NCBI GenBank assembly: GCA_044892525.1
Contig: CM097885.1
Location: 212,102,001 to 212,166,000, forward strand
Origin: Schmidtea polychroa
Lineage: Eukaryota
DNA: 64,000 bases
Direction: 5' to 3'
How positions within the stretch are numbered: the first letter of the stretch is position 1; the number at the start of each line of letters is the position of its first letter. Positions 2,259 through 28,499 of the stretch are shown here, one piece after another. The position numbers were made by a program, and so were the translations under genes. The notes below the pieces were generated by a model. That model was not told where the DNA came from. It ran no database searches and was given only the letters and a program-made list of their open reading frames with translations.

Positions 2259-2484
2259 CATCAATTTCAATTAATTAGCGAATGCAAATTGACTAATACT
2301 TCTCGAATCTTATTATAAAAGTACGGTTAGAAAATGACGAAATTAAAGATATAAATAAAGTAAATTTAAAATTGGGAAAATAAAATAAAAGTAAAACAAC
2401 TTATAACAATTCAAAAGGGAAATGTTTGCTGAAACCACCATGTATTAGTTGTATATTATTAAAATATTTTCTTTTCTAATAGAC

Positions 2485-3520: not shown

Positions 3521-3835
3521 GAGATATTAAGGCCGAGCTGTCGAAAAGTCCAGCCGGTCAGGGAAATTGAAACTGAGCTGTGAAAAGTCCAGCCAGTCGG
3601 AGATATTAAGGCCGAGCTGTCGAATAGTCCAGCCGGTCAGGGAAATTAAAAACTGAGCTGTGAAAAGTCCAGCCAGTCGGAGATGTTAAGGCCGAGCCGT
3701 CAAAAAGTCCAGCCGGTCAGGATAATGAAGATTGAGCTGTTGAATAGTGCCAGCCAGTCGTAAGATCGAGTTGTCGAATAGTCCAACCGGTCGGGATGAA
3801 GAAGATTGAGCTGTTGAATAGTGCCAGCCAGTTGT
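3521..3835 (+). repeat. Tandem array in the gag leader: about 8 units of ~40 bp arranged as ~79-80 bp dimers
   Basis: Recurring core GAGCTGT(C)GAA(A/T)AGTCCAGCC(G/A)GTC with alternating A/B spacers. Confidence 0.9.
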
Positions 3836-7177: not shown

Positions 7178-7188
7178 TAAAGAAGTAT

Positions 7189-10100: not shown

Positions 10101-13100
10101 GATAATGGGAGAAAAATACTCCCTAAGAGATATAGAGGAATGTAGACAGGCATCTCCGAATAAATTGGATATAGTAAAAAAGAAAGTCTCCTACCACGTA
10201 TACCAAGAATCAGATTTTATCCGAACACAAGCTAGAGAATGCGTAGTATCAAAGAAGGTGTTGGCGTATTACTGTGGACAATACTCATATTCAACCCTCA
10301 TATTACCTGGATTAGATAAAGAAATAGTACCTATACAACGAGAAGACTGTAAAGAGCTTTTTAGAACCGGAGCGATGAGAATCCGGGATGGAGTAACAAT
10401 ACACGGACAAAGCGGAATGATCAAGACGGAAAGTATCTACGTAGCCGGACGGGTAAAATCAACCGATGGATCATGCAACGGAGGTACATATACGATCCGA
10501 GGAGAGGTAATATCCGGAGTAGTAGTAATCGAGTCCTACACAGTGGAGTTGAAGGAATACGAAGCGCAATTCGACGCAAATAATTATCAAATGAAAACCA
10601 ACCCAGCATGCAGAGCTACGGAAAACGTGTGTAGAACGGGAATTTCGACTATAATATATGAAGCCAACACCCAAAAATGCCGACTCCAATTGTTAAAAAG
10701 TGCTCTATTCAATAAAGTAAAAGGAGAAATATACGAAAACGAAGATGACGATGAAGAGAATGGAAACGTAAGAATGCGAAATGGGAAACCAGTTCCACCA
10801 TCCCCCAAAGAAAAGAGACTCACAACACAAAAAACACCAACGGCATTAATTACAGATGATCCAGATATCGGTATGAGATTCATCAGAGAAAAAGAGACCA
10901 CCAAATGTGACAGTATAGTATACCGGACGAACTACGCAGGTATCTACATGTCAAGGCAAGTAATAGACCGAGCAGTGGGAAAGGTAGCAACGGAGGACGT
11001 AAAATTGTACTTGTATGCCAATAATAAGATGGACTTCTTATTCCATCGAGGACAAACAACAATGCAAAAAGTGTATTACGATCTTATACAAAATGACTGT
11101 TCATTGAATAAAGAGATACTAAAAACAAAATTAGCCATCGCAATAACACACCCAGATAACACAATGCCATCACTCCCGTTACCGGATGGACACTTTGGTA
11201 GAATGGTGGGAGAGGTAATGTATACATATGCATGTACCAAGACGTTTGCGCGACTACCAAGAAAACCCACAATTCCACCAGGGAAATGTGCAAACGAATT
11301 AGAAATTAGTTACAAAGGGCGGAACAGATTCGTTCAACCCGTCACTAGAATTATGAACCCAATTGGATTTTATCCGAACACCTTTAACTGTTCAAATGCA
11401 TACGGGCCATTTTATGAAAAACCCGATGGGAAATGGATAATGTTACCGTTAAAAGTCGAAGTGCAGGAACCTAAAAAGTTTGGATTAATAGAACTTGCAA
11501 CAGAACAGGATTTCAAACCAATTGATGTGTCAAAGGCGGGTATGTACTCACCAGAGGATTTAGAAACGGCACGATTAAACGTACTATTCCCAGCAAGGCG
11601 AGAGTCCATTTTATCAAATATGGTTACCATAACTGGTGGAACAAATTTTCAATCAAGTCCCAATTATGAACTATTATTATCACCGGATCATTTTCAACAA
11701 GCCACGTCAAACATGATGAAAGCAATGTGGGGAAGATTTCTAGTGTTCGGTCAAATGATGGCAGGAATATTGGGAATCATCTTAATTATTCAGATAGTCA
11801 GAGTAATATTGACCCAAATGTTGGCATGTTTCGATATATACAAACGAGAAAAGAAAGTAAATTGGAAGTTGATAGTAGGTTTTCTACCATTTTTGGCAAA
11901 AACAATGGTGTTGCACGGTCATTCTAAAGATATACACAGAATAAAACGATTAATCAAAATACTGACAAAAATAAAAGGGACAGACGAAGAAGTTGGCAGA
12001 CGATTCCGGAAAACAATGTATGATGAAGCAACGAGAGCGCAACTAAAAAAGAACAAACCAAAATTCTTCGACAGATTTAGGAATCGATCAAACAGCAGCG
12101 ATAGTGATGATGACGACAACGGGAATGACAAATATCCATATCCAAGTAGAAACCCGAATGAAAAACCAATAGAAACAGCGCCATATTGGGAGAAAGAAAA
12201 AACAAATACCTGGATAGCCAACGGAAGTTATATACCCCCAGATATTGTTGGACAACAAGCAGCTCTAACCATGACACAAAATATGTATCCACAGTTACCA
12301 AGTCAACCAGGAATGAATTATATGCCAACCCGAAGAACGAAAAGTGTAGATCAAGCAGACGACGTCAGAACAATAGCAGTAATGAGTTCACCTGGAGGCG
12401 CGGCAGTAACAGTCATGATCCAAATCAACGGGAAAGAGACAAGCGCAATGATAGATACCGGAGCAAATGTATCAGCAATAGCAATAAACCAAATACCCAG
12501 TAAATATTGGAAAGATATCGAACAAACAACTATCCATATTATTGCATGCAGTAAAGAAACCGTAGACGTAGTAGGAAGATGGTGGACTACGTTACGATAT
12601 CAAGATAATGAAATTGAAACGTATCTAGCGGTGATACCCAAACTGAGTGAACCATGTATAATCGGAACGGATTTAATGCCGGAGTTGTTCAAGGAAGTAG
12701 TAATTGATTTAACAACAATGTGTCTAAAAGACAAAATGGGTAGAATATGCAAGATGAACGCAATAATTAGATGCCCGGAGAAAATAATTGTACCAGCAAA
12801 ATCACAGATGATATGTCAAATAAAAGTGGATGCAGGAATGGAAGGAGAAGCCATTTTTGAGCCAAGCAAATCATTCGAAAAACGACGAGAATTACCATTA
12901 GCAAGAGAAATAATAACAATAAATGAAGAAGGGGAAATACCAATTAACATCACAAATTTCGAAGAGGAAGATAAAATCATATATGAAAATGAAAGATTGG
13001 GTAGATTGACACCCATGATAGACATCGAATTGCCAAAAATCACCAATGAATCAACGAAAGCTGAAGAATTATGGATAATTGATAGCACCTTGCTAACGGA

Positions 13101-16100
13101 AAAGGAGAAGGAAAGACTCCAACAACTATTGATAGAATATAAAGATATATTCGCAATTTCGGATTTGGATTTGGGAGCATGTGAGGTCACACTACACGCA
13201 ATACCATTAATAGACGAAACTCCAATTGCGTTACGACCATATAAACTAGCAGAGAAGCAAAAAGAGATAGCCGAAGCAGAAGTGCAAAAAATGCTAGATG
13301 CACAAGTGATCGAACCAAGTTGTTCGCCATGGCAATTTCCAGTAGTCATGGTGAAGAAAAAAGACGGTACTCAGAGATTCTGTATCGATTATCGGAAACT
13401 AAATGCAGTAACAAAAAGAGACACATACCCGTTACCAGACATCAATGAGATGTTACTTATGCTGCAGGGGGCCGCATATTTTACATCTTTAGATCTGAAA
13501 AGTGGATATTGGCAGATCAAAGTAAAGGAGGAAGACAAAGAGAAAACAGCATTCACATTGGGCCGAGATCTATACCAATTCAGGAAAATGCCGTTTGGAC
13601 TAACCAATGCCCCAGCATCATTTCAGAGATGTATGAATTTTGTCACACACGGGATCAAGCAGTGTATGGTATATATTGATGATTTATTAATATATTCAGC
13701 AACATATGAACAACATTTGGAAGATATCAGAAACGTGTTCATCCGATTACGACAATGGAAACTGAAACTTAAACCATCCAAATGTGATTGGGCAAAAGAA
13801 AAAGTTACGTTCTTAGGACACATAGTGTCAGCAAAAGGCAAAGAACCAGATCCAAGAAACATAGAAAAAATAAAAACATGTCCAGCACCAAAAACTGTCA
13901 CCCAAGTTCAAGAATTTCTCGGATTATGCGGATATTATCGTAAATTCATTAAAAACTATGCAGGTATTGCGAAACCAATCCAAGAGTTGGTGAAAAAAGA
14001 TATCTCATTTATTTGGGGAGCAGAACAGCAAAAAGCATTCGAAACACTACGAGACAAATTGATTGAAGCTCCAATACTAGTACATCCTGATTTCAAGAAA
14101 CCGTTCTTGTTAGCAACAGATGCCAGTGGATATGCAGCCGGAGCAATATTGGGACAACTCGACGAGGAAGGAAAAGAAAGAGTGATTGGATACTACAGCA
14201 GAACGTTTAAAAAGCATGAGAAAAACTATTCCGTAACTGAAAGAGAAGCGTTAGCAATAATACAAGCGATTAAGCACTTTCGATATTTGTTATGGGGACA
14301 CGAAATATGTATCACAACGGATCATCAACCATTAGTATGGCTCGGACAGCATAAAGAAGCTTCAAGTAGATTGATGCGATGGGCAATGCAGTTACAAGAA
14401 TATTCACCGTTCATAAAATCCAAAGCGGGAAGAGCAAATGCCAATGCAGATTGTATGTCCAGATTTATTTTTCCAGACTTAGTAGATCACGAAATGCAAC
14501 GAATATGTCTGATGGTAGCGGAAGATTTAGATTTTTGCCAATTACGGAAAGACCAACAAGAGGATGTAGAGTTGAAACAAATAATCGAGTATGTGAAAAC
14601 CGGGAAAGCAGAGGCATATGAGAAAGATCAAAAATTGAAAGAGCATATGGATAAACATCGACATCGATATATTATCGAGAAGGATTGGTTATTGATAATG
14701 GATGGGGAAAAGAGATTGATGTGCATCCCCGAGAATAGACGTAAAGATTTGCTAACGCAATACCATGACGGAAGACTCGGAGGACATATGTCATCTAAAA
14801 AGACGTTAGCACGGATGAAACAAAAATACTTCTGGCCTACGTTATCCGAAGACATAACGGAATGGGTGAAGAATTGTATAACTTGCGCAACCAGAAGAAA
14901 CACGGGAACAAAATGGAAGGCACCATTAAAGCCAATGCCAGTACCAGCAGAACCCATGACTATGATATCTATGGATGTAGTCGGTCCATTACCAGAATCA
15001 GATAGAGGGAATATTTACATATTGGTGATCACGGACTATCTGACTAAATTTCCCGAAGCATTCGCTATGGCAGACCAGAAAGCAAAAACAATCGCAAAAA
15101 TATTAGTAGAGGAAATATGTTGTCGATATGGAACGCCGAAACAAATACTGACCGATCAAGGAACAAATTTCATGAGTGAGATAATGAGCGAAGTAACCAA
15201 TTACTTCAAGATTGCAAAATTAAGAACATCACCGTACCACCCACAAACAAATGGTATGACAGAAAGATTCAACGGAACCTTGATCCAGATGTTATCAAAT
15301 TATGTCGATCGTCATCAACGAGACTGGGATGAATACATAAAATTATGTCTAATGGCTTACAGAATGTCGATTCACGCGTCCACAAAGATGAGTCCGTTCA
15401 AGTTGATGTACGGCAGAGAATGCAATATGCCAATGGATTTGGAGTATCAGCCACCAATATCACAATACATGGAAATAGACGATTACGTAACCAAGTTCAA
15501 GGAAAGAATGCAGGAAATCTGGGAAACTGCAGGATTGAATGTAAAATTTTATCAAGAAAGTTACAAAGATTTACATGATAGAAAGAAAAACGTCAAACCA
15601 CATACGTTTCAAACAGGCGATTGGGTGATGATCGAAACACCGGAATTGATTCCAGGAACCACCAAAAAATTGCAACGAAACGGCAAAGGACCGTATGAAA
15701 TTTTATTCGTCGGAGAAACTAATGTAAGAGTACGATTAGTGAACAACCCTTTTACAAGACCAATATACGTAAATGTTGCACGATGTAAGCCAATTCCGAA
15801 AACCGCCACCAGTCAGCCAGAAGGACGCACATTAACGACAAGATCACAAACGTATAGAATAAATATGTTACAGCAGATAAACGAACCAACAGGTAATCGA
15901 TTGGGGTTACAACCCTCAGAAGCCGAGAAAATCATAAAGGAAGTAAAAGCTAAAATGCCCGGATGGGCAAAAGACAGATTAGATTTTGAGATATTGGGAG
16001 GTCTGCTAACAATGATAGAAAACTATGCCAATCGAGAAAGAACACACCCATTACTCAGAGTGGTTAAAAGTCAATGGCCTATATTATTCACAATCACAGA

Positions 16101-18927
16101 TCACTACGGAGATACACCACTACACAAACTTTTAAAGGTTGGTAATAATGAACAAATACTAGAGACAATTGAAGAATTTCGCGACTGTAACATTTCGACA
16201 GATCAAGAAAACAACCAAGGTTACACTCCACTAATGATAGCAGCCAATCGGGATAAAGCTAAAGATATTATTATCGCATTACTTGAAACTGGGTCAAAGA
16301 TAACCACACAAGATCACCACCAGAAAAATGCACTACATCATGCAATCGAAGGGAAAAGTACGGAAGCCTTCATAATCTTAGTAGATCTATTATCGTACGA
16401 GGATAATAGGGAGATAGGAAACATGTATGACGGGCTATTAACCGCGATCAAAGAGAAATTAATAACAATTACTGGATTACTAATTGCATGGAGGAACCCG
16501 ATCAAAAACGATTATATGGTAGATATAAACGAAACATTTACCAAAGGGGAAAACACCTTGATGAGAGAAGCGATGAGAGGACATCACCTATTCGAAATTC
16601 CCAATCAACTACTACAACGTGGCATAAAGTTTTCAAATCACAAAGACGAACAACTAATCAGAAAACGGATTACCAACTTCGAAAAAACTATATCTCAATT
16701 TACCGATAAAGTACAAGTAAAATATTGGGAAACCGTGAGTGTATTATCTATGATGGAAACTATGAATAACATTCGAGAAAACTACCTAAGTATTATTCAA
16801 GTTCTAACGGCAGAGGAACGCATTAACAGTTCGAACAAGAAAAAGATAAAAATGAAGAAAGTAAAAGCAAGAGAGTCTGAGGAACAAGTCGATCAAATAA
16901 TAACCGATATAGCAACAACAAGTAAACCAAAGATAATAAACTCAGACCAAGAGATAATACTACGCAAAGCCAAAGAGGTGTTCTTTGAAGAAATGCGAGA
17001 TTTATCTGACGAAGCAATACTATCAAAAATAATAAAAACAGTACACACCTACGCAAGAGATCAGACCACAAATCTAGACATAGGAAAAATAAAAACATTC
17101 ATACCACTAGCATTCACCTTACCAACGAAAGATTCAAGAACACCATTACAACAAGCAATATTAGCAGCAAAAGAAAACAGAGCAATAACCATCATAAGAA
17201 TTCTTAGAGATTTCGGAGAAGAATCAAATGCAAAAAATGAACAAGGAGAAACAGCAATGATGTATGCAGCAATAACAAATATACACCCGAAAACCTTACA
17301 TATACTACACCAATCAGGTTCGAGACTTGACGAGAAATCAAACGAGGGAAATTCTGCCATGGATTGGGCAACAATACAACCAAACTTGGAGATGATTAGA
17401 TTCATTTGTAAAAATGCTACAAGAACTGAGGTAGAAAATATCTGTAAAAACACGTCACAGTTCCAATGGAATACGATACGGAAAAGCTTAGAAGCCATGA
17501 AGTTATTGTTAACCTGGAAAATACCACAAAGCAATAAATATGCAATAAATATAAATGAGTTCTACGAAAACGGAGAAAATGCTATGGTTAAGAATACGTT
17601 GACAAAAGGAGGAACTCCGAAAATCATAATGATCGTATTGAACAGAGAAGACCTCAAATTCACGCAAAATCAAAACGAACAAAAGCGAATCGGAAAACAT
17701 CGTCGAATACAATTAAGGGAATTGGTAAAAGAATGGAATAGAAAAAGACATGCAGCAACAGGAAGAAAAGAGTTTGAATTCGAAGCAAAATTAGCAAGAA
17801 ATAGAGTGCTAACAGCATATCGCAGATTGTTGAACGATATAAATGTCGAGGACGACATTTTAAACGACAGCGGGAGAGATAAAGACGACGATAATGATGA
17901 AACAGGTCAAAACGGGAATGGAGAGAAAGAGAAATCAAAGGAGAATAATCAAGGGAATAACGACTCAAGTATAAAAAAGGAGGAAAATAAACCGGGAAAC
18001 CGAACAAAGGAAGAGGAAAAGACGAATAATGGGAAACAGAGGGTATGCCTACTTTTTACCAACAAGGAAATGGAGACAAATATGATGATAATGATACTCA
18101 TACTAACAATGGTAGAAATGATAACAGCCCACGGTGGAATGAGAACGATAAAAGAAGCCAAAGAAACGGAAAATAAAGACAACAAAGAGGAAGAACTAAA
18201 ACAAGAAAAGAAAAAGCAAGTACAAGAACAACAATGGGATTTGAAGGAGGAATGGAATCTAAAAGAAAGGTGCATACTAGGAAGATGTGTGTCGAGAGCA
18301 TATCAGAGACTAGTGTTAATAAACGAAGATACAGAACCGATAACGGAAGTAAGAATACAAGAAGCATACCGAAATCGAGACGGAAGGAGAATAACGAAAG
18401 TCAAAGGGAAGGAGGTACACCTGGAAAAAGGAGGTGAGGTAGTGATAACGCAACTCCAGCCAAGAAAAGAACACAAAGTCTGCATTTCAAGATTAGGACC
18501 GGGTGAAGACTGTCTACAATATGTAACACAGCAACAACCTCCAAAAGAATACACAGTATGCATCTGGAGAAAAGATACAGCGAGAGAATGTCGACGATAC
18601 CCTGGGAAAAGAGGGAAGAAAAGAAAAAGCAACGATGAGAAAGAGGAGGAAGAAAAGCGCAAGAAAACTAGTGAGAAATATCAAGATAATTACGTGTCAG
18701 AAGAAGAAATGGAAAAAATACAAAAAATGGCAAAGGAAGGGATCAATGAGGAAATAACGAAAATACGGGGATTGGAGAAAGGAAAAAGCCAAACAGAGAA
18801 AGATGCAGAAACAGCAAGTACAATAACAGGCAATGGAAACTCAGAGACCATCAGTGTAAAGCAGATGATATGGATCAGCGGAATAATAATAATCGGAGCG
18901 TTCATAACTATAACGGGGGGACGATAA
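7189..18927 (+). CDS. pol: 3912-aa polyprotein: Ubl x3 - Bcl-2-like - Env-like glycoprotein - PR - RT - RNase H - IN - ankyrin x2 - C-terminal membrane protein
   Basis: Uninterrupted ORF. Motifs IDTGA (PR), YIDD (RT), TDASG/EREALA/TDHQPL (RH), HHCC + DVVGP/TDQG/ERFN + GPY (IN). Confidence 0.96.
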   Translation: MEKMKQAETTRYVIKIGTSKGLERIWIKNTVTDELFDWIREHLGSSRKKEYLYQYQGEQIKPDMHLIDALIWPGETQILKLHKEKQPTNVHEWAKDAKAEYDFNIKLKLEQIKQCTLRRNLDKLIKQIQEQVEDNWDLLIARRTPDMHELMSRLRDTELLRMSDWRTINLIHKYGRLKETQPQKLEITIWLPNEEKRRIKMSNQSTVDDLVSKINQEITEKVRSESSDGMIDDVVMMYDKIILRAEDDTSLSEMGMWDNHQIIRILPMDEFRTRDVTYQKEIRDRMKTLYQKSVEIIEIHQQWLKEKELQGKIRKLSVRSCRRTPWERMWNAENKEWEIRKGIFVETDIGEIESESEEEEDEPPKYEEDEIESISDDESETDVTSESETEIRHIRAMRKKEREYADIDGEEAKEARDREERERYKQLSDILETGTKNQKRQTIALANFILKISDNIQYLREIVKTIEEYRRYNEWYPEQLEQIIGKWRNHEWSQDTQERYRIRIKYPDKTVEEVEVHPTTKIRELKKKLAYETPFHLQLQGKSLDDNVDVGITPMRLGEINVLTMAETLGKPIKRKSKSSKTTKGSLSTPSPDKVASKSNETEEIEEIILEDSDEGAGERSPILVRWPTGAEIWTTSQPSTSYQQPSKLSIEEIIDNTTETETDEQFQRQKGSMRITPEGQTDKIIDEWNEWLRNNDSSLPRTDNERNPSYERTREAGTMMEKRAKGRPKKQGEKPEFKTREQLKQEQGQVRLEKLDKIVWDLKEAQPTIERGEKWIRELVKDMLIITSPQLRRLWQRKVASVDARQLWNVISGIIPKLIKEKTKTTKTDWEETRRVIEQLTLNANDDEHHLVVLTYLMYNLMGLAARKIPNKQFANHVEMTVTIIENTIEPHIIRAGGWKRLIQAPRKNEQERSMQIRLKKLLNELEWELPLKDPASRKASINSLMMTMMIWMLCTSGAAGFTIYDCDNSIMGEKYSLRDIEECRQASPNKLDIVKKKVSYHVYQESDFIRTQARECVVSKKVLAYYCGQYSYSTLILPGLDKEIVPIQREDCKELFRTGAMRIRDGVTIHGQSGMIKTESIYVAGRVKSTDGSCNGGTYTIRGEVISGVVVIESYTVELKEYEAQFDANNYQMKTNPACRATENVCRTGISTIIYEANTQKCRLQLLKSALFNKVKGEIYENEDDDEENGNVRMRNGKPVPPSPKEKRLTTQKTPTALITDDPDIGMRFIREKETTKCDSIVYRTNYAGIYMSRQVIDRAVGKVATEDVKLYLYANNKMDFLFHRGQTTMQKVYYDLIQNDCSLNKEILKTKLAIAITHPDNTMPSLPLPDGHFGRMVGEVMYTYACTKTFARLPRKPTIPPGKCANELEISYKGRNRFVQPVTRIMNPIGFYPNTFNCSNAYGPFYEKPDGKWIMLPLKVEVQEPKKFGLIELATEQDFKPIDVSKAGMYSPEDLETARLNVLFPARRESILSNMVTITGGTNFQSSPNYELLLSPDHFQQATSNMMKAMWGRFLVFGQMMAGILGIILIIQIVRVILTQMLACFDIYKREKKVNWKLIVGFLPFLAKTMVLHGHSKDIHRIKRLIKILTKIKGTDEEVGRRFRKTMYDEATRAQLKKNKPKFFDRFRNRSNSSDSDDDDNGNDKYPYPSRNPNEKPIETAPYWEKEKTNTWIANGSYIPPDIVGQQAALTMTQNMYPQLPSQPGMNYMPTRRTKSVDQADDVRTIAVMSSPGGAAVTVMIQINGKETSAMIDTGANVSAIAINQIPSKYWKDIEQTTIHIIACSKETVDVVGRWWTTLRYQDNEIETYLAVIPKLSEPCIIGTDLMPELFKEVVIDLTTMCLKDKMGRICKMNAIIRCPEKIIVPAKSQMICQIKVDAGMEGEAIFEPSKSFEKRRELPLAREIITINEEGEIPINITNFEEEDKIIYENERLGRLTPMIDIELPKITNESTKAEELWIIDSTLLTEKEKERLQQLLIEYKDIFAISDLDLGACEVTLHAIPLIDETPIALRPYKLAEKQKEIAEAEVQKMLDAQVIEPSCSPWQFPVVMVKKKDGTQRFCIDYRKLNAVTKRDTYPLPDINEMLLMLQGAAYFTSLDLKSGYWQIKVKEEDKEKTAFTLGRDLYQFRKMPFGLTNAPASFQRCMNFVTHGIKQCMVYIDDLLIYSATYEQHLEDIRNVFIRLRQWKLKLKPSKCDWAKEKVTFLGHIVSAKGKEPDPRNIEKIKTCPAPKTVTQVQEFLGLCGYYRKFIKNYAGIAKPIQELVKKDISFIWGAEQQKAFETLRDKLIEAPILVHPDFKKPFLLATDASGYAAGAILGQLDEEGKERVIGYYSRTFKKHEKNYSVTEREALAIIQAIKHFRYLLWGHEICITTDHQPLVWLGQHKEASSRLMRWAMQLQEYSPFIKSKAGRANANADCMSRFIFPDLVDHEMQRICLMVAEDLDFCQLRKDQQEDVELKQIIEYVKTGKAEAYEKDQKLKEHMDKHRHRYIIEKDWLLIMDGEKRLMCIPENRRKDLLTQYHDGRLGGHMSSKKTLARMKQKYFWPTLSEDITEWVKNCITCATRRNTGTKWKAPLKPMPVPAEPMTMISMDVVGPLPESDRGNIYILVITDYLTKFPEAFAMADQKAKTIAKILVEEICCRYGTPKQILTDQGTNFMSEIMSEVTNYFKIAKLRTSPYHPQTNGMTERFNGTLIQMLSNYVDRHQRDWDEYIKLCLMAYRMSIHASTKMSPFKLMYGRECNMPMDLEYQPPISQYMEIDDYVTKFKERMQEIWETAGLNVKFYQESYKDLHDRKKNVKPHTFQTGDWVMIETPELIPGTTKKLQRNGKGPYEILFVGETNVRVRLVNNPFTRPIYVNVARCKPIPKTATSQPEGRTLTTRSQTYRINMLQQINEPTGNRLGLQPSEAEKIIKEVKAKMPGWAKDRLDFEILGGLLTMIENYANRERTHPLLRVVKSQWPILFTITDHYGDTPLHKLLKVGNNEQILETIEEFRDCNISTDQENNQGYTPLMIAANRDKAKDIIIALLETGSKITTQDHHQKNALHHAIEGKSTEAFIILVDLLSYEDNREIGNMYDGLLTAIKEKLITITGLLIAWRNPIKNDYMVDINETFTKGENTLMREAMRGHHLFEIPNQLLQRGIKFSNHKDEQLIRKRITNFEKTISQFTDKVQVKYWETVSVLSMMETMNNIRENYLSIIQVLTAEERINSSNKKKIKMKKVKARESEEQVDQIITDIATTSKPKIINSDQEIILRKAKEVFFEEMRDLSDEAILSKIIKTVHTYARDQTTNLDIGKIKTFIPLAFTLPTKDSRTPLQQAILAAKENRAITIIRILRDFGEESNAKNEQGETAMMYAAITNIHPKTLHILHQSGSRLDEKSNEGNSAMDWATIQPNLEMIRFICKNATRTEVENICKNTSQFQWNTIRKSLEAMKLLLTWKIPQSNKYAININEFYENGENAMVKNTLTKGGTPKIIMIVLNREDLKFTQNQNEQKRIGKHRRIQLRELVKEWNRKRHAATGRKEFEFEAKLARNRVLTAYRRLLNDINVEDDILNDSGRDKDDDNDETGQNGNGEKEKSKENNQGNNDSSIKKEENKPGNRTKEEEKTNNGKQRVCLLFTNKEMETNMMIMILILTMVEMITAHGGMRTIKEAKETENKDNKEEELKQEKKKQVQEQQWDLKEEWNLKERCILGRCVSRAYQRLVLINEDTEPITEVRIQEAYRNRDGRRITKVKGKEVHLEKGGEVVITQLQPRKEHKVCISRLGPGEDCLQYVTQQQPPKEYTVCIWRKDTARECRRYPGKRGKKRKSNDEKEEEEKRKKTSEKYQDNYVSEEEMEKIQKMAKEGINEEITKIRGLEKGKSQTEKDAETASTITGNGNSETISVKQMIWISGIIIIGAFITITGGR
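7219..8880 (+). other. Three ubiquitin-like (beta-grasp) domains in the polyprotein N-terminus (about 7219-7434, 7741-7986, 8686-8880)
   Basis: IRIKYPDKTVEEVEVHPTTKIRELKKKL..FHLQLQGKSLDDN and LEITIWLPNEEKRRIKMSNQSTVDDLVSKI..EDDTSLSEMGM follow the ubiquitin pattern. The first copy is weaker. Confidence 0.65.
9460..9905 (+). other. Divergent Bcl-2-like domain in the polyprotein
   Basis: BH2-like IEPHIIRAGGWKRL versus Bcl-xL LEPWIQENGGWDTF. Upstream VIEQL..DEHHLVVL aligns to VVNELF..NWGRIVAF with a one-residue gap. Degenerate BH3-like QLRRL. Confidence 0.6.
10021..11916 (+). other. env: Envelope-like class III (chuvirus/gB-type) glycoprotein with signal peptide and C-terminal TM region
   Basis: Signal LMMTMMIWMLCTSGAAG, then FTIYDC..YSLRDIEEC..Q.S..C.V..YYCGQYSYS..C, the N-terminal pattern of chuvirus-type G proteins. 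TM WGRFLVFGQMMAGILGIILIIQIVRVIL at about 11728-11820. Confidence 0.8.
12406..12690 (+). other. Aspartic protease domain
   Basis: VMIQINGKETSAMIDTGANVS (catalytic D at 12454) and CIIGTDLM. Confidence 0.93.
13200..14460 (+). other. Reverse transcriptase and RNase H domains
   Basis: SPWQFPVVMVKKKDG, CIDYRKLN, DLKSGYWQI, MPFGLTNAPASFQR, YIDD (13672), TDASG, NADCMSR. Confidence 0.97.
14740..15790 (+). other. Integrase domain (HHCC, DDE core, GPY/F)
   Basis: YHDGRLGGH..CITC, MDVVGPLP, LTDQGTNF, PQTNGMTERFN, KGPYEI. Confidence 0.96.
15860..17850 (+). other. Tandemly duplicated ankyrin-repeat module after integrase
   Basis: GDTPLH, GYTPLMIAA, KNALHHAI, GENTLM in copy A. SRTPLQQAI, GETAMMYAA, GNSAMDWA, GENAMV in copy B. 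The A and B flanks align to each other. Confidence 0.88.
18070..18927 (+). other. C-terminal polyprotein segment: signal-like hydrophobic stretch, Cys-paired domain, terminal TM anchor
   Basis: MMIMILILTMVEMITAHG; repeated CISRLGPGEDC / CIWRKDTAREC; terminal MIWISGIIIIGAFITITGGR*. Confidence 0.55.
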
Positions 18928-19239
18928 AAATAATCCGAGATAAACAACAGCGTAACAAACTCGAAATGATCAGAGCCAGAAATTTTCAACATCGAGTAAA
19001 AAGGCCCAGTAACATGAGCCAAGAACAGTGGATGGAGGCCTGGAATACGCAGTGCCCTCCAAATCCACAAATATAGAAAGGGTCATGACTGTATATAATT
19101 GTAAAAAGTAAGTATATCTTATGTATATAACAGTATCATATTTTTATATAAGCGCGGTATTACTAGTATATAACGATCGGGAGAAATAAACAATATAAAT
19201 TTAAATAAGACAAAGATTGAGAATATATAAAAATTAGGA

Positions 19240-19599
19240 ATGGAGCAAGGAAATAACGAAATGAACCACAACACAGTAACTGAAGAATTATGGAAGCAAC
19301 AATGTGCCGTATTAGCACAATTAGTGTCTAATTTACAAGAACAAGGATTGACGATGCAAAAGAACCTAATCGAGAGTATGAACAGAGGATTTAGTTATTT
19401 GAAAATAATTGAAGACCAGAGGTTAAAAATCGAACAAATGCACAGAGAAATAGAGAGGATAACCCAATATAGCCGAAGACAGGAAATCGAATTGGAAAGA
19501 ATGGTGGAGGAAGCAGAGCAGACGGAAATGGAAGATTGGTCAGAATGGCTAATGAGTAGAGAGGAGGGCGGACACGAAGCCGACTCTTCCGAACCATAG
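19240..19599 (+). CDS. Accessory coiled-coil protein (119 aa)
   Basis: Intact ORF with heptad-rich E/Q/L composition; TTAG|gaATG context. Confidence 0.65.
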   Translation: MEQGNNEMNHNTVTEELWKQQCAVLAQLVSNLQEQGLTMQKNLIESMNRGFSYLKIIEDQRLKIEQMHREIERITQYSRRQEIELERMVEEAEQTEMEDWSEWLMSREEGGHEADSSEP

Positions 19600-19684
19600 A
19601 CCAAACCTAAATTAAAATGTAAATAACTGTAAATAAAATCTCGAGCCTGTTTCGATAAGAACTATATGTATATATAATTATAGA

Positions 19685-21073
19685 ATGGATAAACGACAAA
19701 GAGAAGAGTTCAGAGAGATTGTCGAACAAGTCCGAAAATCTACAACGATCAAAATACACAAACATGTCATGTGTGGAATATGTGAAAAGTTGTTAAAGGA
19801 ACCTCACCAAACCCAATGTGGATGTAGATTATGTAAGGAATGTATCCGTGAAACAATAAAAAATAGACCACAGTGGTGCCCGGTGTGCAGAGAGACACTA
19901 ATATCGAGTTTAGAAGACACTAACGAAGATAAAGCCGCAGTGAAAGACATGCTAAATACCAATCTGGGATGCAAAAATACCCCATGCGAATGGAAAGGAG
20001 TAATATGGAAAGTAGTGCAACATATGGGAGAATGTATGTACAAAATCGGCCAATGTGAAAGGTGCCATAAAACTATTCGGGCAAGCGAAGAAAAAGAGCA
20101 TCAAAACCAGTGTGAAGAGAGATTAGAAAGATGCGAACATTGTGGAGAATTAGATACGTGGAAAAATCTCACCATCAAACATCACAATGTCCAAGAGGAA
20201 AAGGTATGTGCGGAGTTCAGTGGGGAATGCCCAAACGGATGTGAGAAAGGGAGAATAATGAAAATAACCCAACACCTAAAGGAATGTGAAAAGAAGAGAA
20301 TGATATGTGTGCTAGGTAAATGGGGCTGTCCGACACTATTACACCGAGGAGACCTACCACACCATCTAATGGAAAATGTAATAACTCACGCAGAAATGTG
20401 GTCAACTGCGTTACAAGAAAGCGAAGAGAAAGTAAAACAAATGGAAATAGAGATAACATCGTTGAAAGGGTTAGTCAAAGAACTACTAGAAGAAAGAGAA
20501 GCGTTCGAAGAAGCCCGAGCTAACATCAGAATGCAAATAAATCGTATAGAAATTAGCAACAATCAGGCCAAGGTGCTACATCAAAAGATAACAGAGATAA
20601 ATCTAAATGAAGTAATACCAACAGCACCCTACATATGGAAGATAACGGGAATAAAGGAAAGAATATGAAAAGCAAAAACCGGAGAAGATACAAGACTAAC
20701 AAGCCCCGCATTTCATTCCTGGAAAAACGGATACAAAATGAAAATGAAGGTATATCCCAACGGGGACGGAACCGGATTAGATACGCATTTTTCGATCTTC
20801 TTTATGCTCTGTAAAGGGGAGTATGATGAAATATTAGAATGGCCGTTCCAGGCAAAAATCGATATTACTCTAATGAACAACCAAAGTATACACGAGCAAA
20901 GCTTCAAAACAACGGGGAATCAGATAGCTTACCAGAGGCCCCTCAACGAAGAAGGAGCAGCAACAGGAGCACCGACGTTCATCTTACAACAAAGGGTAGA
21001 AGATATGGCGAGAAACGATACCGTATATATCAAGATGACGGTTCGGAGGGAAGGAAAGAGTAGAACCGAGTAA
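19685..21073 (+). pseudogene. TRAF-family gene (RING, TRAF zinc fingers, coiled coil, MATH) with one in-frame TGA at 20666-20668
   Basis: RING CGICEKLLKEPHQTQCGCRLCKEC..CPVC and several Zn fingers. MATH YIWKI...*...SPAF..GYKMKMKVYPNGDGTGLDTHFSIFFML.KGEYDEILEWPF. ORFs 19685 and 20738 are in the same frame. Confidence 0.9.
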
Positions 21074-21265
21074 CCAGGGTGAATAACGTTGTATATAATA
21101 AATCTGTATATATCGGTGTATATAACCAGTAAAATAATATATAATAATAGTATGGGATCCACAAATATAACAACCCAAACTGAAGCGGAAAATCCAACAA
21201 AAACATCAACCGAATAATAAAATCCAATAATGCGATGATATTTAATCAGAATCTATAATTTAGAG

Positions 21266-22321
21266 ATGACACAAGAAATAACCACCACAACTACGATGAC
21301 CCCAAGTAATGCAACCGAGATACAAACCCCCAAAGAACATAGCGAGAAATGGAACAAGGTGATGTTCCAATTAACTAACCGAACCCGCAACCACATCGAA
21401 GAAGCCAAGGAAGACGAAAATAGTAAATATCGATGGTTAATAAACAATTTAAGAATCGAAGCAGAGGCGTGTAAAAGAGCCTCTAAGTGGGCGTCATTGG
21501 AAAATACCCGCCAGGAAACACACAGTCACTACCTAAAACAGTTAGTGCAGGAGGCACGAAAACGGTTGACTGATGAAAATACCAAACGAGAAGCCGAAAA
21601 ACAAAAGGAAGGGAGAAAAATGAATCACCTATTGGCGGAAGCCCGAAAATGGAAACGACAGAACAAAGAAATGAAGAAGGAAATGAAAGAATTGCCCATG
21701 AGATTAGAGTACGAGAGCGAGCAGGGTAAATGGGAGGAAAATCTAGTCATAAAGGAAGAGCTAAAACGGCTAAGAAAGATCGCGGCTCGGAGTCAAACCT
21801 GGCAGACCAAGGCCATGGAGTTTGAAAGACATTTAGCCATGAAACTCTCCATAAGAGAGCACGAGAATGCTGCGATGGAAGAATTGATACTCCAGCAGTC
21901 AGGGCGAGTCGGGGAATTAATAAATCAAGTCACCGAGCTAAAACGAGATGTCAATGGATATCAGGGAGCTCTAGAACAAAGAAACATGGTATTGGTGGGA
22001 AAGAATAAAAAACTAGAAAACGAAAGAAAAATGTATCACGAAAATCTCAAAAATCTGGAGATAGAAATCGAGAAGTGGAAGGGCGACGAAAAGATAAAAG
22101 AGTTTGAGAGGCAGTTAAAGGTAAAAGACGAGGAGACGAGATACCTCACCTATTTGCTCGACGAAGAATTGAACATTACCAGGGCACTCAGAGATGAAGT
22201 TCAGGAGCTGAGAGCTCAAATTCCCCAATATTACATACCATATGACCCTATTGCCATCCAACTACAGGCAGCGGTCGAGAGCGATGAAGGATACGGGGGT
22301 CAGGAGGAAACCTTCGTATAA
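21266..22321 (+). CDS. Accessory long coiled-coil protein (351 aa)
   Basis: Intact ORF with continuous charged heptads; TTTAG|agATG; AATAAA just after the stop. Confidence 0.75.
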   Translation: MTQEITTTTTMTPSNATEIQTPKEHSEKWNKVMFQLTNRTRNHIEEAKEDENSKYRWLINNLRIEAEACKRASKWASLENTRQETHSHYLKQLVQEARKRLTDENTKREAEKQKEGRKMNHLLAEARKWKRQNKEMKKEMKELPMRLEYESEQGKWEENLVIKEELKRLRKIAARSQTWQTKAMEFERHLAMKLSIREHENAAMEELILQQSGRVGELINQVTELKRDVNGYQGALEQRNMVLVGKNKKLENERKMYHENLKNLEIEIEKWKGDEKIKEFERQLKVKDEETRYLTYLLDEELNITRALRDEVQELRAQIPQYYIPYDPIAIQLQAAVESDEGYGGQEETFV

Positions 22322-22491
22322 GGGCTAATAAAAAATTCAAAATTCAAAAATTGGGACTATATCCCAAACAAAAAAAATTAATAGTACAGTAAAAGTATTT
22401 GAGGGACTGTAACCCTGTGTAACTAAAAACGATATAAATGTATAAGTATAAGTCGCACTGTAGCGCATGATTAATTGTAAATATTATAGAT

Positions 22492-23196
22492 ATGAAGATT
22501 GAAGAGATAGTTGAACCCATGAGTGAAATAGAAGAAGGAGAGATTGTAATGGAAGTCGCAGAAACACAAATACTAAAGAGCGAATTACGAGAAGAGAAAC
22601 GAGAAAACGAGAGATTAGTAAACAAATATATGGAAGACCGGAAAATAATTAAAGTACTAAAGAAAGAATGCAAAATGCTGGGAGAAGTAAAGAGAGAAGC
22701 AGCAGAGAGAAATGAATGGCTGCAGGAGCAACAAAAACGAGGAAGAAATTGGGAAAGAATTGCAGAGGAATTATGGCAAGAAAGGGCAAGCTTCAAAGCA
22801 GAAGAAGTAATCCAAGACTACTGGAAAACAGAGGCGAGAGAACGCCAAACAACCATAAATAGATTAAATCGACAATTGGAGGAAAACCAACGAGAAAGTG
22901 AAGAAATGAAGAAATGGATTCGTAAATACAAAGAAATCGAGAGGCAACAACAACAACGAAACCATCCACAAGAGAACGAACAAGATTTCCTACAAATCGA
23001 GTTAAAAAGAAATCTCGACAAGAAACGAGAAGAAATAAGCAAACTAAAAAGGGAGATAAGACACCTAAAAAGGGAAGCCCGTGAAAAGGATCGGCAATTA
23101 GAGATGATGCCGGAGTTAAGACACCGGGTCATTGAAGCGGAATCTACCCTGATGAGAAATGCCGAAAATAATCCCAAAGGAGAACCATCTAACTAA
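22492..23196 (+). CDS. Accessory coiled-coil protein (234 aa)
   Basis: Intact E/R/K-rich ORF; TATAG|atATG. Confidence 0.72.
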   Translation: MKIEEIVEPMSEIEEGEIVMEVAETQILKSELREEKRENERLVNKYMEDRKIIKVLKKECKMLGEVKREAAERNEWLQEQQKRGRNWERIAEELWQERASFKAEEVIQDYWKTEARERQTTINRLNRQLEENQRESEEMKKWIRKYKEIERQQQQRNHPQENEQDFLQIELKRNLDKKREEISKLKREIRHLKREAREKDRQLEMMPELRHRVIEAESTLMRNAENNPKGEPSN

Positions 23197-23235
23197 AAGC
23201 AATTAAAGCCAGTGTAAATAATATAATAATAATAG

Positions 23236-23847
23236 ATGTATATTAGTACAATGCGGTATGGAATCGTGATAACGGTAATGGTATTGATAAATCACCTGAT
23301 GGAGAAACAACAATTAAACGCTCAACTGACAAGCATACGAGATCACCGCAATCGAAATCAAAAAGCCAAACCAGAACCTTGCCAATGCCAATACCCCAGT
23401 ACAATAAAAACCAACATCCTCCATAGTATCCAGTCAACTCGGTCATATGTTAATAACGTCAGAAGTCTGTGCAAAAATCACCCCATATGCCGAATGATGG
23501 ACCGAAAAATACTCGAACAAGTCCAACACTTCGATCAGTTGGAACAACAAATACAACAAGAAGTGTTCGAAAATCCGGCCGAGACAACAGAAACACCCTC
23601 AAATAACAGCGACACCCACTACCTTCTCTACGTAGTGATCGCAGAAACTATCTTGTTATGCCTCATAACTTTCCTAAAAATCCTCGAAGTTAAGAAAAAA
23701 TGTCAGAGCTCGAAATCTAGAGCCACCGTACAAAACCCAGCCGAAATAACCAATGTTATCCAAACCACAAGCTCACCCAGATTAAACCATAAAGAATCTC
23801 CTCAACCATCGTCCAATCGCCCAGTCTACCATAACACCAGTTCCTAA
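23236..23847 (+). CDS. Accessory predicted type I membrane protein (203 aa)
   Basis: N-terminal hydrophobic YGIVITVMVLI, 4-Cys ectodomain, TM YLLYVVIAETILLCLITFL, basic Ser/Pro tail; AATAG|ATG. Confidence 0.7.
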   Translation: MYISTMRYGIVITVMVLINHLMEKQQLNAQLTSIRDHRNRNQKAKPEPCQCQYPSTIKTNILHSIQSTRSYVNNVRSLCKNHPICRMMDRKILEQVQHFDQLEQQIQQEVFENPAETTETPSNNSDTHYLLYVVIAETILLCLITFLKILEVKKKCQSSKSRATVQNPAEITNVIQTTSSPRLNHKESPQPSSNRPVYHNTSS

Positions 23848-24470
23848 TTGTAGCAGCAAACCCCAACCAGAACCATCAGAGTGACCAAACAATGCCAGAA
23901 CTGAACTAAAAACACTATGTTGTGAAAAACTTTGTTGTGTATATAAACCATCACCATAAGTGATGCCTGCTTGGTCTTGATTTGACCTATATCTTATTAA
24001 TAAAATTTTATTGATGTTTATAATTTTGTTAATCACTATGTTATCTTTTTATGAATGTGCTTATCTTTTTCTGAGAGAATAAGAGTAGCTCAAGTATGTA
24101 ATTGCGGAGGCAATTTTGTCGGGTCCCCGAGTGATTTGTTGGGCTGAGTCGAAGAGGATCGGAGGGATTAGGTTAAGCATAACGAAACTAAAATTAAAAA
24201 TAAAAATAAAATAAACAAATCTACGAAACAAAGTAGAAAGGAAATAAGAAAAATAATAATTAGAAAATAAGAATTAAAACAAAAAATATAAAAACACGAA
24301 AAATTGAAATAGGACCATAAAATGACGGAAAATGACGTAAAATGCAGTAAATAATAAGGAAATTAAAGAAAATAAATAAAAATACAATAAAAATAAGGAA
24401 AATAGGAAGAAATAGCTCAAAAACAAGGAAAACAAATTAAAATAATAAAAATAGGCGGTACTCCATTCTG

Positions 24471-24504
24471 ATTGGTCCGCATAAGTAGAAAACTAATATA
24501 TAAG
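24471..24504 (+). promoter_or_regulatory. Candidate LTR promoter (inverted CCAAT box plus TATA box)
   Basis: ATTGG at 24471 and TATATAAG at 24497, followed by an AG|GTAAGT donor at 24553. Confidence 0.55.
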
Positions 24505-26637
24505 CAGACACTAAAATCATAACAATTACCGTTCATCTAACCACTACATTAGGTAAGTGTATTTTAATTAACAATTACCGTTCATCTAACCACTACATTA
24601 GAAACCAAAATTCACAGCGACAGCCACAGATTTACCGAAATCATTGCAAGGACTATTCTAGGAATCCAGGAAACTCAACCAATTCTATAACCTATTCTAG
24701 TATTAACCAATTCTGTTCAGAACTTTTCGATTCAGCCTATTTGAAAACTTGGTAAGGGATTTTTTCATTATTTAGGTTTACCATGCAACGATCATGTATA
24801 TTTATGAATTTGTAGTAGTCTAAATTTAACAATAATTTTTCTCTTTTCGTTTGATTTGAAGGTCTTACTTAATTAAATGTTTTAGTAATTTGGTAATAAA
24901 TATTTTATGATGAATTTTTATTATTTATCAATTTTATGGTATTCAAAATTTTGGAGAAACGTGGTGTTGAGATACTCCATGTCATGGTGTGACGTGCCTT
25001 CGGGAGCTCAGCCGGTGGACATGGGGTCTTTTCAATCACGCAGCTGATTCGGGCCGTAATGTGGGGGCTTCCTCACGGGTCCGTCGCTGAGGGAGTGACT
25101 AAATTCTATGAAAATTCGTACGAGGAAGTAGGGTAGGAGAATGAATCGATCAACAGGAGAAATTTGGAGATATTCGCGCAGTGATTGAGGGTGTCACACT
25201 AGCATGTAATAACAGCGGCTTATCAAGTTCAAAATCTTCTTTATCATCCAGTAGACCTAGGCAAGTCTTTCGTTAAAAAACCGTCCAACCTTGGTAGCGC
25301 TGTAGTTGCCATAGTTCTCGAATTCGCTAGAAATTTAATCTTGAAATTTTCAGCTAACGATTTTTGCGTAATCGCTATTCCTATCGGCTATATGTCCTCT
25401 CAAAGATAAAATTGTATGAAATCACGTAATTAAATAGGTTTAAATAATCATTAAAATAAAAGCGAACAACTCCAATCAGTAAAAATGTATTTCTCTAAAC
25501 AATAATTTATTAGAATAATGTTTACCCAGTAAAACATAAATTGTCCACATCCCGTCGAGTAGAAAATCCAGCATTGAGATAAGTAATAAATCTCCAATTT
25601 GACAGCAGTAGCCAGCGTACATTGATAGTGATGGAGGGCCACGAGACGAGCTAGTAAATCATATTTGAGGGATCGTGAATTAATTCCAACATTGATGATG
25701 TAAAAATCCGGTTTTTCCAAAATATCCATGAGAGATAACAGGCAGCATTTGAGGTAGATACAGGGTTCGTCAGTGATGTAACATGTCATATGGGAAGAAC
25801 ACACCTGCATGCATACACAGGCATAGTATAGAGCATGAAACGATCAGTCAGCGATTATGACTAAGTAGGAGTGGATGAGAAAAATTTTCATGTGCCACGC
25901 GTTTCCAGACCATCACCGAGACTACTCGTAATCGGTAGATTATACAGACAGTCAATCACAGAGAACCCCACCTGGCGCGTCAGTTGAAATGTGATTACAA
26001 AAAACATACTAATGACATTCACCCGATTTCTCACCAATCGGAATTAACAGACAACCGACAGGCGGTCCTTTGGATGCACTTAGCTAAACTCATTTAATTA
26101 TTTAGTTTTACTTTAATCATTCATATTTTCTTATAACTAAATAGGTGTAAATTAATTAACAAAACTTTTACGTGTCATAAATAAATAATTGTAGAGAAGG
26201 GGATAGATTACCGTTTATTTTTGGGTTCCTATTCATATGAAACAATTAATTTAAAAGTAAATCGACCTATTTGGACATGAGACTTACACCTCAAAATCAT
26301 TTATCTTGGGTATATCTGTAATTACATTCAAATTCTCTGACGATGCTATTTTCAGGTAAATTAATTAAATCATAATTTCATCAACTAGTGATTCCCCTTG
26401 TTAATGGTAATACTATATTTTCCTTCGATAAGATCTTGCATGGACGCTCTGTTCCCGTATAAATAATGACCCCAAGCGTACAAGATCTGTAGGGTAAAGA
26501 AGTCTCTTCAGGCTAATAAACTCGTTTCGTCTGTGTAACAACCTATGATCAGGGGGGTATGAGTGTGACTAGATGATGATGTCTCAAATTTGCCTTAGTT
26601 TGATTTTATTCGCATTTTCTCTTCATAGCTATCCAAG

Positions 26638-27381
26638 ATGTCTCCAAGTTCCAATAACATTCTTAAACCTTGCTTTTCTTGCTCGGACAAGAATTCAGTC
26701 ATCAGAGATCTACAAGCGCAAATTGGAAAATACAAAAGGAAGATAGATGAGTTGGAGGGGACATGGTTTAGTCCCGCGCAAATGAAGGAGACCCAGAAGA
26801 AATTGCATCGAAGCGAGCACTGTCGTGATGCTCTCATTTCCGAAAGTCGGGCACAGAGGAGCCTGATAAAAGAGCAGTCAGAAGCGCTGCATAAACTATA
26901 CATACAAGCGGCGACCACGAGAAAAATAGCGAAGATCCCAATTAACGAAGCCAGCAATCTCTTCCCAGCGCATCATGATACCTCCGTCAGGCTTTTGCCT
27001 CCACTCGCGAAGTCTTGCCATGGGTGTGTAGAGTCCGAGCTCTCTCCTAAAGACCCAGAGATTGTATTCACCGGGACCAGTAAGGTCCAGCCAAATCTCG
27101 CGTCCTCATCAACCGTACAAACGATCACCACTTCAAAGCCTAAGCGTCGACAGCTGTCTCGAGCAGAACGCAAACGGAAACAACGGGAACGGGCATCTGG
27201 CAGGCAGTGTACATCGTCAACCGTCGCTCCAGTCAGCGGTAATGGTAATCTGACGGTGGTCGACCCAACAACCGGGATCTCCGGGCGAGTCATCTCCGCC
27301 GTCGGGGTGACGTGGGAAGAAAATGCCGCCGAGTTCTTTAATCTGGACGAGTTACTCGCCGACTCGGAGTGGGAGAAATGA
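26638..27381 (+). CDS. Second copy of the LTR-encoded 247-aa protein
   Basis: Protein identical to 921-1664. Confidence 0.75.
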   Translation: MSPSSNNILKPCFSCSDKNSVIRDLQAQIGKYKRKIDELEGTWFSPAQMKETQKKLHRSEHCRDALISESRAQRSLIKEQSEALHKLYIQAATTRKIAKIPINEASNLFPAHHDTSVRLLPPLAKSCHGCVESELSPKDPEIVFTGTSKVQPNLASSSTVQTITTSKPKRRQLSRAERKRKQRERASGRQCTSSTVAPVSGNGNLTVVDPTTGISGRVISAVGVTWEENAAEFFNLDELLADSEWEK

Positions 27382-28499
27382 GGATTTTCCCGAAACATGG
27401 CCTCCTTCTCAGGAGAGGATTGCACTTATCTGATGTCGTTTTCTACCTTGGTGTCATTCAGCTCGTGTAAAATTCCTTGTATAAATTCTCTAGGTGTTTG
27501 TATAGTAACTTTAATAAAAAAATAAAAAAATTTCTCGTTTATGTACGTGTTATCTCGTGTGTTGAACTTATAAAATAATATGAACTTGCAAATGGTATTG
27601 AGAGTTTCGGAAAATAAGGAGTATTGGTCAATTGGTAATCCCAATGGGAAATCTTGCGACGGGCGACAGAATGAAAAGACGTAAGTCCTTCTATCGGCGG
27701 TCAGGGTTAGACAGTCGAGGCCTCAGTAGGGAGTAGTCCGAAGGAGATGGCTCACCTGCCTACTGGTGTCTCGCCGGCATAGCACAGTTCCAACGTGAAG
27801 CGATTCACGGGTGCTATGTTGGAGGGTAGATTATGTACGGGTCCTGCTCGGCGATGACCAGAATCAAGACGAGCGTAATCGATATGGACATTCATCCTCT
27901 AGACTAAAAGCGGTACTGAAGGGGGTCATCCGGGTAGCCGCCCGCCAACATTATAATAAAGTGGAATTTTATCAATATTTGTGAATACTAACAATATATT
28001 AACATATATAATTAAATATCATAATCTTTTATATATAAAAATATAATAATAAATTACTTTTAAAAATGAAGGAGAAAGGTTTGTTCTAATAATATAGAAA
28101 ATATAACCGAGAAGAAAAACATGCTCTACTCACAAAAAAAGAACTCCAGAAGTTAAGATATACGAACCAATTCTATATGAAGATAGTAAACAGATTCACA
28201 GACTACCGAAGATGATTTCAATTATCTATTGTCGAATTTATTTGAATAAAATCTTATGTTCTAGTTTATTATTTATTAGAAACTTCACCAATAAATATTT
28301 ACTAAATTGATCAATTATAGCTAAAATAATTTATTTACTATGAATTGAACTGTTTTCATAAATATTACACAGAAATCAATAACAATCTCCTTAAAAACTT
28401 CATTTGTATTCTGCTTAATCAACTCTTCCTTCGTTCGTCCTGTCCATGTCTTTTATTTCTGACATTCTTCATAATTTAAATGAATTTAAACTTCATTTT

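Follow-up and report, generated by a model that had tools for sequence, protein, structure and literature searches.

Burro/GYPSM1 elements are giant gypsy-like long terminal repeat (LTR) retrotransposons of planarians (PMC6431247). They are abundant in planarian genomes, where the route by which many cargo genes are expressed from one cassette is at stake, and Burro1 is credited with supporting stem cells and regeneration (Lee et al. 2026, as cited in PMC13465017). The stretch analysed here (the window) comprises 64,000 nucleotides (nt) of Schmidtea polychroa (assembly GCA_044892525.1, contig CM097885.1, positions 212,102,001 to 212,166,000, forward strand) and carries at 1..27951, on the + strand, a giant Ty3/gypsy LTR element of ~29.5 kb overall, referred to as family A, which is assigned to the Burro type by its layout relative to published descriptions. 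Shared with those elements, as far as the available text of PMC6431247 describes them, are a length of ~30 kb with LTRs of several kb, an env-like fusion protein located between gag and the protease, reverse transcriptase, RNase H and integrase domains of pol, cargo comprising ankyrin, TRAF/MATH, RING and SMC-like coiled-coil proteins, and separate accessory open reading frames (ORFs). The BIR domain found in Burro1 had no match in any window ORF scanned with Pfam, and family A is therefore not filed as Burro1 itself. Unlike the published elements, family A encodes its TRAF protein in a downstream ORF and has no BIR ORF in its cassette; a second family (family B, below) has one. The available text of PMC6431247 is silent on the spacers and on accessory ORF expression.

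Flatworm operons resolved by spliced leader (SL) trans-splicing contain genes in one orientation, spaced by ~100 nt, each with an acceptor close to its start (available part of PMC8629364), an arrangement that the accessory cassette of family A shares, although here donor-like sites in the LTR could serve cis-splicing. In Rous sarcoma virus, an RNA stability element (RSE) bound by PTBP1 behind the gag stop confers position-dependent protection (PMC4764554, in part), and both systems have a cis element right past a stop that is followed by a long tail of further ORFs, the tails in family A being predicted. The RSE, as described there, is a 400-nt pyrimidine-rich element acting at one stop, while the cassette carries a PUF-type 8-mer behind five or six stops, with protection proposed. 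The published consensus of the Pumilio response element (PRE) is UGUANAUA (PMC11182014), and fly PREs, in the available portion of that study, have in common with the sites reported here the same consensus, predicted 3′ untranslated regions (UTRs), AU-rich context, clustering, and the same recognition residues in the protein. In contrast to fly PREs, the present sites are fixed to the stop codon and repeated behind internal ORFs of a mobile element; location within the UTR is not among the informative features of the fly model in that portion of PMC11182014. Neither the element class nor the PRE is new in itself; the stop-anchored PRE in Burro spacers appears to be the new part. Neither PREs in Burro spacers nor PUF sites anchored to the stop codons of a retroelement came up in a literature search of listings and abstracts, which did not reach the Burro1 study of Lee et al. 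2026.

In the accessory cassette of family A, occurrences of UGUANAUA (counted as TGTANATA in the DNA) are conserved, strand-specific elements at a fixed 13-19 nt behind most internal stops. The ORFs, sites and signals of the cassette are given below in window positions, with distances measured past the stop codon, lengths in amino acids (aa), and AG denoting an acceptor-like dinucleotide.

19090..19097, +: stop-proximal site TGTATATA, 13 nt past the pol stop; at +13 in 19/19 copies, and in 29/30 of a second, partly overlapping set
19108..19115, +: perfect U1-type donor-like site GTAAGTAT in spacer 1, 31 nt past the pol stop; retained by nearly every copy
19122..19129, +: secondary site TGTATATA; kept in 17/19 copies
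19240..19599, +: accessory ORF 1, 119 aa; AG at 19236-19237; 32% identity to ORF 1 of family B
19618..19625, +: stop-proximal site TGTAAATA, 18 nt past the ORF 1 stop; 19/19 copies
19628..19635, +: secondary site TGTAAATA, overlapping AATAAA
19667..19674, +: secondary site TGTATATA; position 5 is C in 9/19 copies; lost in 4/19
19685..21073, +: accessory TRAF-like ORF (RING, MATH); in-frame stop at 20666-20668 in the window copy; AG at 19682-19683
21090..21097, +: stop-proximal site TGTATATA, 16 nt past the TRAF stop; 20/20 copies at +15/+16
21105..21124, +: two secondary TGTATATA sites, at 21105 and 21117
21266..22321, +: accessory coiled-coil ORF 3, 351 aa; the sole internal stop without a stop-proximal site, the first site lying at +95 to +159 among copies
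22476..22483, +: site TGTAAATA, 16 nt ahead of the ORF 4 ATG; position 5 is C in 5/19 copies
22492..23196, +: accessory coiled-coil ORF 4, 234 aa; AG at 22488-22489
23213..23220, +: stop-proximal site TGTAAATA, 16 nt past the ORF 4 stop; 20/20 copies at +16/+17
23251..23847, +: last accessory ORF; AG at 23245-23246; signal-peptide-like N-terminus and one membrane-like segment, by eye
23938..23945, +: site TGTATATA, not stop-proximal, 90 nt past the last stop; intact in 11/19 copies
23999..24060, +: predicted host-like poly(A) site ahead of the 3′ LTR; AATAAA, then a U-rich stretch (U 0.575)

The six spacers of this cassette, totalling 1051 nt, contain 11 sense matches to TGTANATA (2, 3, 3, 1, 1 and 1 per spacer), against a mean of 0.58 and a maximum of 4 in 3000 dinucleotide-preserving shuffles. 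There are no matches on the antisense strand of the six spacers, and no sense matches in the 13.7 kb of gag-pol, in the LTRs or in the leader. A first-pass annotation, made by a model from the letters alone, had listed ten matches, and all ten are present at those positions on the + strand; as a total the figure was one short, since an eleventh (TGTAAATA at 19618) was overlooked. Its observations that each of the six spacers (~1.1 kb by its estimate) holds at least one match and that fewer than one would be expected are borne out, as is the enrichment that it proposed to check against shuffles and the opposite strand. Two features of its map required revision: the first spacer, given as 312 nt, measures 163 nt, with the sibling pol frame running to a stop at 19074-19076, and the start of its ORF 5 (the last accessory ORF), placed at 23236, is probably at 23251.

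Family B was found through BIR and TRAF matches. Its cassette is collinear with that of family A, and its accessory proteins share 26-33% identity with those of family A, while a blastn comparison of the cassette DNA of the two families gave no match. Because the motif had been chosen after reading the sequence, all gapped 8-mers were ranked without bias. TGTANATA is the top gapped 8-mer of the internal spacers of family A (10 vs 0.59 expected, in 5/5), comes first after poly-A words in family B spacers (9 vs 0.66 expected), and ranks first over both families (19 vs 1.29 expected, in 11/11 internal spacers). Depletion of the motif from coding sequence was not significant when measured against synonymous shuffles (family A, 0 vs 1.1 expected; family B, 2 vs 1.5).

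The motif is tied to the preceding stop codon rather than to the next ATG. After the five internal stops of family A, beginning with the pol stop, the first site is found at +13, +18, +16, +154 and +16, and the corresponding values in a divergent copy of family A are +13, +19, +15, none and +18. After the six internal stops of family B the distances are +16, +17, +16, +26, +18 and +17, in 8/8, 8/8, 37/37, 37/37, 6/8 and 8/8 loci, respectively, a few copies being counted twice via overlapping loci. Over the two families, 10/11 internal stops have a site 13-26 nt downstream, and the interval between site and next ATG is anything between 10 and 176 nt. Placing these sites at random within their spacers yields 3.5 internal spacers with a site starting at +10 to +30, where 10/11 are observed (at least 10 in 4/100,000 placements), and 1.3 with a site starting at +13 to +19, where 9/11 are observed (0/100,000 placements). 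ORFs with no cassette ORF behind them (those of the LTR and leader and the last ORFs of both families) have a site at +10 to +30 in 0/7 cases (Fisher p = 2.5e-4). The 3′ flanks of host TRAF, tubulin and G protein-coupled receptor (GPCR) genes have none at that distance either (0/72, non-redundant); these are 72/90 loci, after leaving out 17 near-duplicates and a TRAF locus interrupted by an internal stop, and a site occurs anywhere in 200 nt in 4 of them on the sense strand and in 5 on the antisense strand. No site lies nearer than 13 nt to any internal stop in the 11 spacers. A terminating ribosome covers ~12-15 nt past the stop codon, and with no site within 12 nt, the sites therefore begin at the first free place.

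Conservation among family members, another check suggested in the first-pass annotation, follows the motif. Conservation is 97% at motif bases, 84% elsewhere in the spacers and 67-81% at third codon positions, in a set of 18 other copies that are interrelated and for which these values are descriptive. The four stop-proximal sites of family A are invariant in 19/19 copies. Changes that preserve the motif all fall at position 5 (two independent, the C variants at 19667 and 22476), and some secondary sites have been lost outright among copies. Of 877 candidates from a search with the cassette, 28 were scored, each with 80-100% identity. The single copy (1/30) that has no +13 site behind pol has TGTAAATA overlapping its stop codon instead. 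Among copies, the A-run in the spacer after coiled-coil ORF 3 (22363-22378) varies from ~7 to >40 nt, and the homologous family B spacer also has one; in spacer 3 (21090-21135), poly(A)-signal-like hexamers seem by eye to swap position by subfamily (AATAAA at ~+24 or ~+55).

Several properties of the sites point to a PUF-type reader. UGUA occurs 40 times in the 11 internal spacers and goes on as NAUA in 19/40, against ~2-3 expected by composition; an extension so far beyond composition indicates that the reader recognises eight bases. The host genome encodes one full Pumilio gene, with eight repeats carrying SRFIQ, NYVIQ, CRVIQ, NHVVQ, CRVIQ, NYVIQ, SNVVE and NYVIQ, and its recognition residues match those of PUM1/2 and fly Pum. 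The sites thus combine UGUANAUA on the sense strand, a free fifth position with the other positions constrained, and a canonical host PUF protein, as for PREs. Pumilio-type recognition is the best fit because the full 8-mer is kept, changes occur at free position 5, the motif is strand-specific and the host Pumilio is canonical. As judged from these sequence features, the motifs are candidate sites that host Pumilio probably binds in vivo. The first-pass annotation had proposed that accessory mRNAs are under Pumilio control, which is partly supported, in that Pumilio is the probable reader; "accessory mRNAs" misses the pattern, which includes the pol stop. A planarian Pumilio is reportedly essential to stem cells, to go by the title of a 2005 report by Salvetti (as listed in PMC3868585). 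The site of a stem-cell regulator at a fixed distance from the stop, in families whose accessory proteins are ~30% identical, offers a sharp and testable handle, and Pumilio binding, if true, would tie cargo expression to Pumilio-positive cells. Two partial copies of a Pumilio exon (repeats 3-4) lie apart from the main gene, on C4 at ~88.4-88.6 Mb.

The layout of the cassette suggests how such sites might act. An AG stands 0-4 nt ahead of every accessory ATG in all copies aligned, and likewise in family B, and each ORF would be expressed from a spliced mRNA entering at the AG next to its ATG. Downstream of host poly(A) signals the mean U content is 0.48, and the terminal site at 23999 is of this kind, whereas past AWTAAA in the internal spacers it is 0.08-0.38; these U-poor spacers are therefore suited to read-through. 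Most such mRNAs, together with the genomic RNA, may extend to a common 3′ end, and co-terminal mRNAs would have predicted tails of 0.8-4.9 kb behind the internal stops. A long tail behind a stop is a classic target of long-3′UTR decay. Host Pumilio would bind the motif at the first position left free by the terminating ribosome, and bound Pumilio could bar re-initiating ribosomes or long-3′UTR surveillance (UPF1) from the tail, like PTBP1 at the Rous sarcoma virus stability element. Such a role fits because the motif is present behind long-tail stops and missing behind stops that have their own poly(A) signal. We assign a probability of roughly 0.3 to this whole chain, the leading reading, in which spliced, long-tailed mRNAs carry Pumilio as a position-dependent shield or insulator. 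A protective effect, if true, would represent a new position-dependent PUF action and a new escape from nonsense-mediated decay (NMD) for a retroelement. It is doubtful that the stop-anchored site goes as far as to license each internal stop and so lets the genomic RNA, along with five or six mRNAs with long tails, evade NMD specifically in Pumilio-rich stem cells.

A number of results weigh against the shield. By family, the placement test gives P = 0.0003 for family B and P = 0.04 for family A alone; moreover, the distance windows were picked after the data had been seen, and homologous spacers of the two families share ancestry and are not independent. Stop 22321 is without a stop-proximal site in 20/20 family A copies, and a compact relative with one downstream accessory ORF has an internal stop without a site (0/2 lineages). 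Within the elements, internal and terminal-type sites do not differ significantly in U-richness (p = 0.16). According to the available text of PMC11182014, Pumilio is a repressor, reducing both translation and stability, and the literature search returned no precedent for Pumilio shielding from NMD. Contigs of four runs, of uncertain kind, show no joint at any acceptor or motif and, among the rows listed, no loose end that corresponds to a leader or SL; these results carry no weight either way. Two candidates from this material were rejected: an A-tail at 22377 coincides with the genomic A-run that varies among copies, and a GT..AG joint at 24519-24569 coincides with a 33-nt tandem repeat and is indistinguishable from a copy without that repeat.

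Since a shield runs counter to the usual repressor role of Pumilio, plain repression by the same protein is nearly as likely. Each ORF would then have its own short mRNA, with an end made inside the spacer either at a weak poly(A) site or through operon-like SL trans-splicing at the AG that follows, so that +13 to +26 is the only 3′ UTR available, and Pumilio would recruit CCR4-NOT and limit cargo proteins in stem or germ cells; every gene of a mobile element would in that case retain a brake supplied by the host. All of the evidence for PUF recognition applies here as well, the 2-3 sites clustered in some spacers recall the clustering that strengthens repression in flies (PMC11182014, in part), and the spacers, at 54-192 nt, are similar in length to the intercistronic distances of Macrostomum operons, which peak at ~100 nt (PMC8629364, in part). 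AATAAA or ATTAAA is found in 10/11 internal spacers, but AATAAA in family A spacers is at the level expected from composition (6 vs 5.8), the internal spacers do not have the U-rich downstream stretch of host sites, and the ORFs that do have a host-like poly(A) site are without the stop-proximal motif. The genomic RNA would, in addition, have to traverse all spacers uncut. Other PUF-based roles, taken together, are improbable.

Readings that involve no PUF protein account jointly for a sizeable minority of the probability. Nuclear 3′-end signals, raised in the first-pass annotation as UGUA-type processing sites, are an unlikely one: CFIm25, which is encoded in the host genome, would read UGUA and, with an overlapping AAUAAA, define a weak internal poly(A) site competing with the next acceptor, as in the layout of the adenovirus late unit, the PRE match being incidental. 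UGUA alone is indeed enriched (18 vs 8.9 expected), 21/40 UGUA are not full 8-mers, and TGTAAATAAA overlaps AATAAA in several spacers; a 4-nt reader, however, leaves unexplained the fixed AUA at positions 6-8 and the minimum spacing of 13 nt from the stop, and the TRAF>BIR spacer of family B has no AWTAAA hexamer. A Schmidtea mediterranea 3P-seq study, in its available text, furthermore reports that poly(A) signals are not preceded by UGUA and that a CFIm59/68 homologue is missing (PMC5068929). Stop anchoring and the absence of the motif behind the last ORF would be accounted for, with still lower probability, by splice donors, in which T/GTAWATA (slash, exon boundary) is a weak 5′ splice site and each ORF either a cassette exon with its junction <50 nt past the stop, safe from junction-triggered NMD, or followed by a short intron from motif to AG. 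Host donors in 17 tubulin introns are degenerate, often GTAAA or GTAT, and host introns of 40-55 nt are near some motif-to-AG distances. The base at -1 in these introns, which represent few distinct intron positions, is nevertheless G in 14/17, A in 3/17 and T in 0/17, and T followed by GTANATA occurs in 0/17; seven fixed bases are unnecessary for a donor, +4 turns to C in copies, donor-like sites in the LTR of the element read G/GTAAG, and none of the loci compared (30 of family A, 29 of family B) has a deletion from motif to acceptor. The least probable alternative, one that the first-pass annotation also named and that fits poorly, is a TATA box of an internal promoter for each accessory ORF. 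TATAWAW is enriched in family A spacers (15 vs 6.2 expected) and one clean TATATAAG at ~19145 is followed by a GC-rich stretch, but family B has TGTAAATA almost throughout, TATA becomes TACA in 9/19 copies at 19667, spacing is set by the upstream stop and not by the ATG, and every ORF has an acceptor-like AG.

Apart from the motif, the donor-like GTAAGTAT at 19108-19115 could be a real donor or a cleavage-suppressing U1 site, and the matching spacer of family B contains GTATGT. The remaining parts of the family A element in the window are as follows.

1..2234, +: 5′ LTR, the part inside the window; internal 247-aa ORF at 921-1664, then AATAAA and a U-rich stretch
2485..2970, +: leader RING ORF, 161 aa; acceptor-like AG ahead of the ATG, host-like poly(A) signal behind, and no stop-proximal motif
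5219..19076, +: gag-env-pol-ankyrin region; the window copy is interrupted at 7177/7189 and terminates prematurely at 18927, while sibling frames reach the stop at 19074-19076
24137..27951, +: 3′ LTR; predicted leader with a TATA-like box (24497) and canonical donor-like sites (24553, 24752)

The element starts ~1580 nt upstream of window position 1, is flanked on both sides by a 4-nt target duplication, and has LTRs of 3815 nt each that are 99.84% identical across 3816 nt. The copy is young; despite this LTR identity, it is disrupted relative to its siblings at three ORF positions (7177-7189 at the gag/pol boundary, 18927 near the pol end, and 20666-20668 inside TRAF). Pfam searches of the window ORFs identified gag, a chuvirus-type fusion protein, protease, reverse transcriptase, RNase H, integrase, ankyrin, TRAF-like and RING domains, with the fusion protein (chuvirus-type/mononegavirus, PF24664) at residues 1213-1552, upstream of the protease, reverse transcriptase, RNase H and integrase domains. 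A putative primer-binding site, with a likeness to the 3′ end of tRNA-Pro, lies at 2242-2260. Just past the TATA-like box of the 3′ LTR, a 33-nt tandem duplication at 24520-24602 frames a 49-nt GT..AG stretch that could be a first leader intron.

A third giant family, sought via env, Bcl-2 and TRAF matches, was not found; everything that these searches returned belonged to compact families, to host genes, to a Polinton-like element or to a divergent family A copy. A run of Polinton-like ORFs (ATPase and integrase, by eye) is on the minus strand near multi-copy Bcl-2-like matches. Many TRAF-MATH and Bcl-2 matches of the genome are multi-copy element cargo and not host genes, which may inflate published family counts. 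Elsewhere in the window, a second, small gypsy LTR element with ends 99% identical occupies 45907-51542 on the minus strand, and a host WDHD1/Ctf4-like gene (WD40, Mcl1_mid; short AT-rich introns) at 29600-32300 adjoins the family A insertion.

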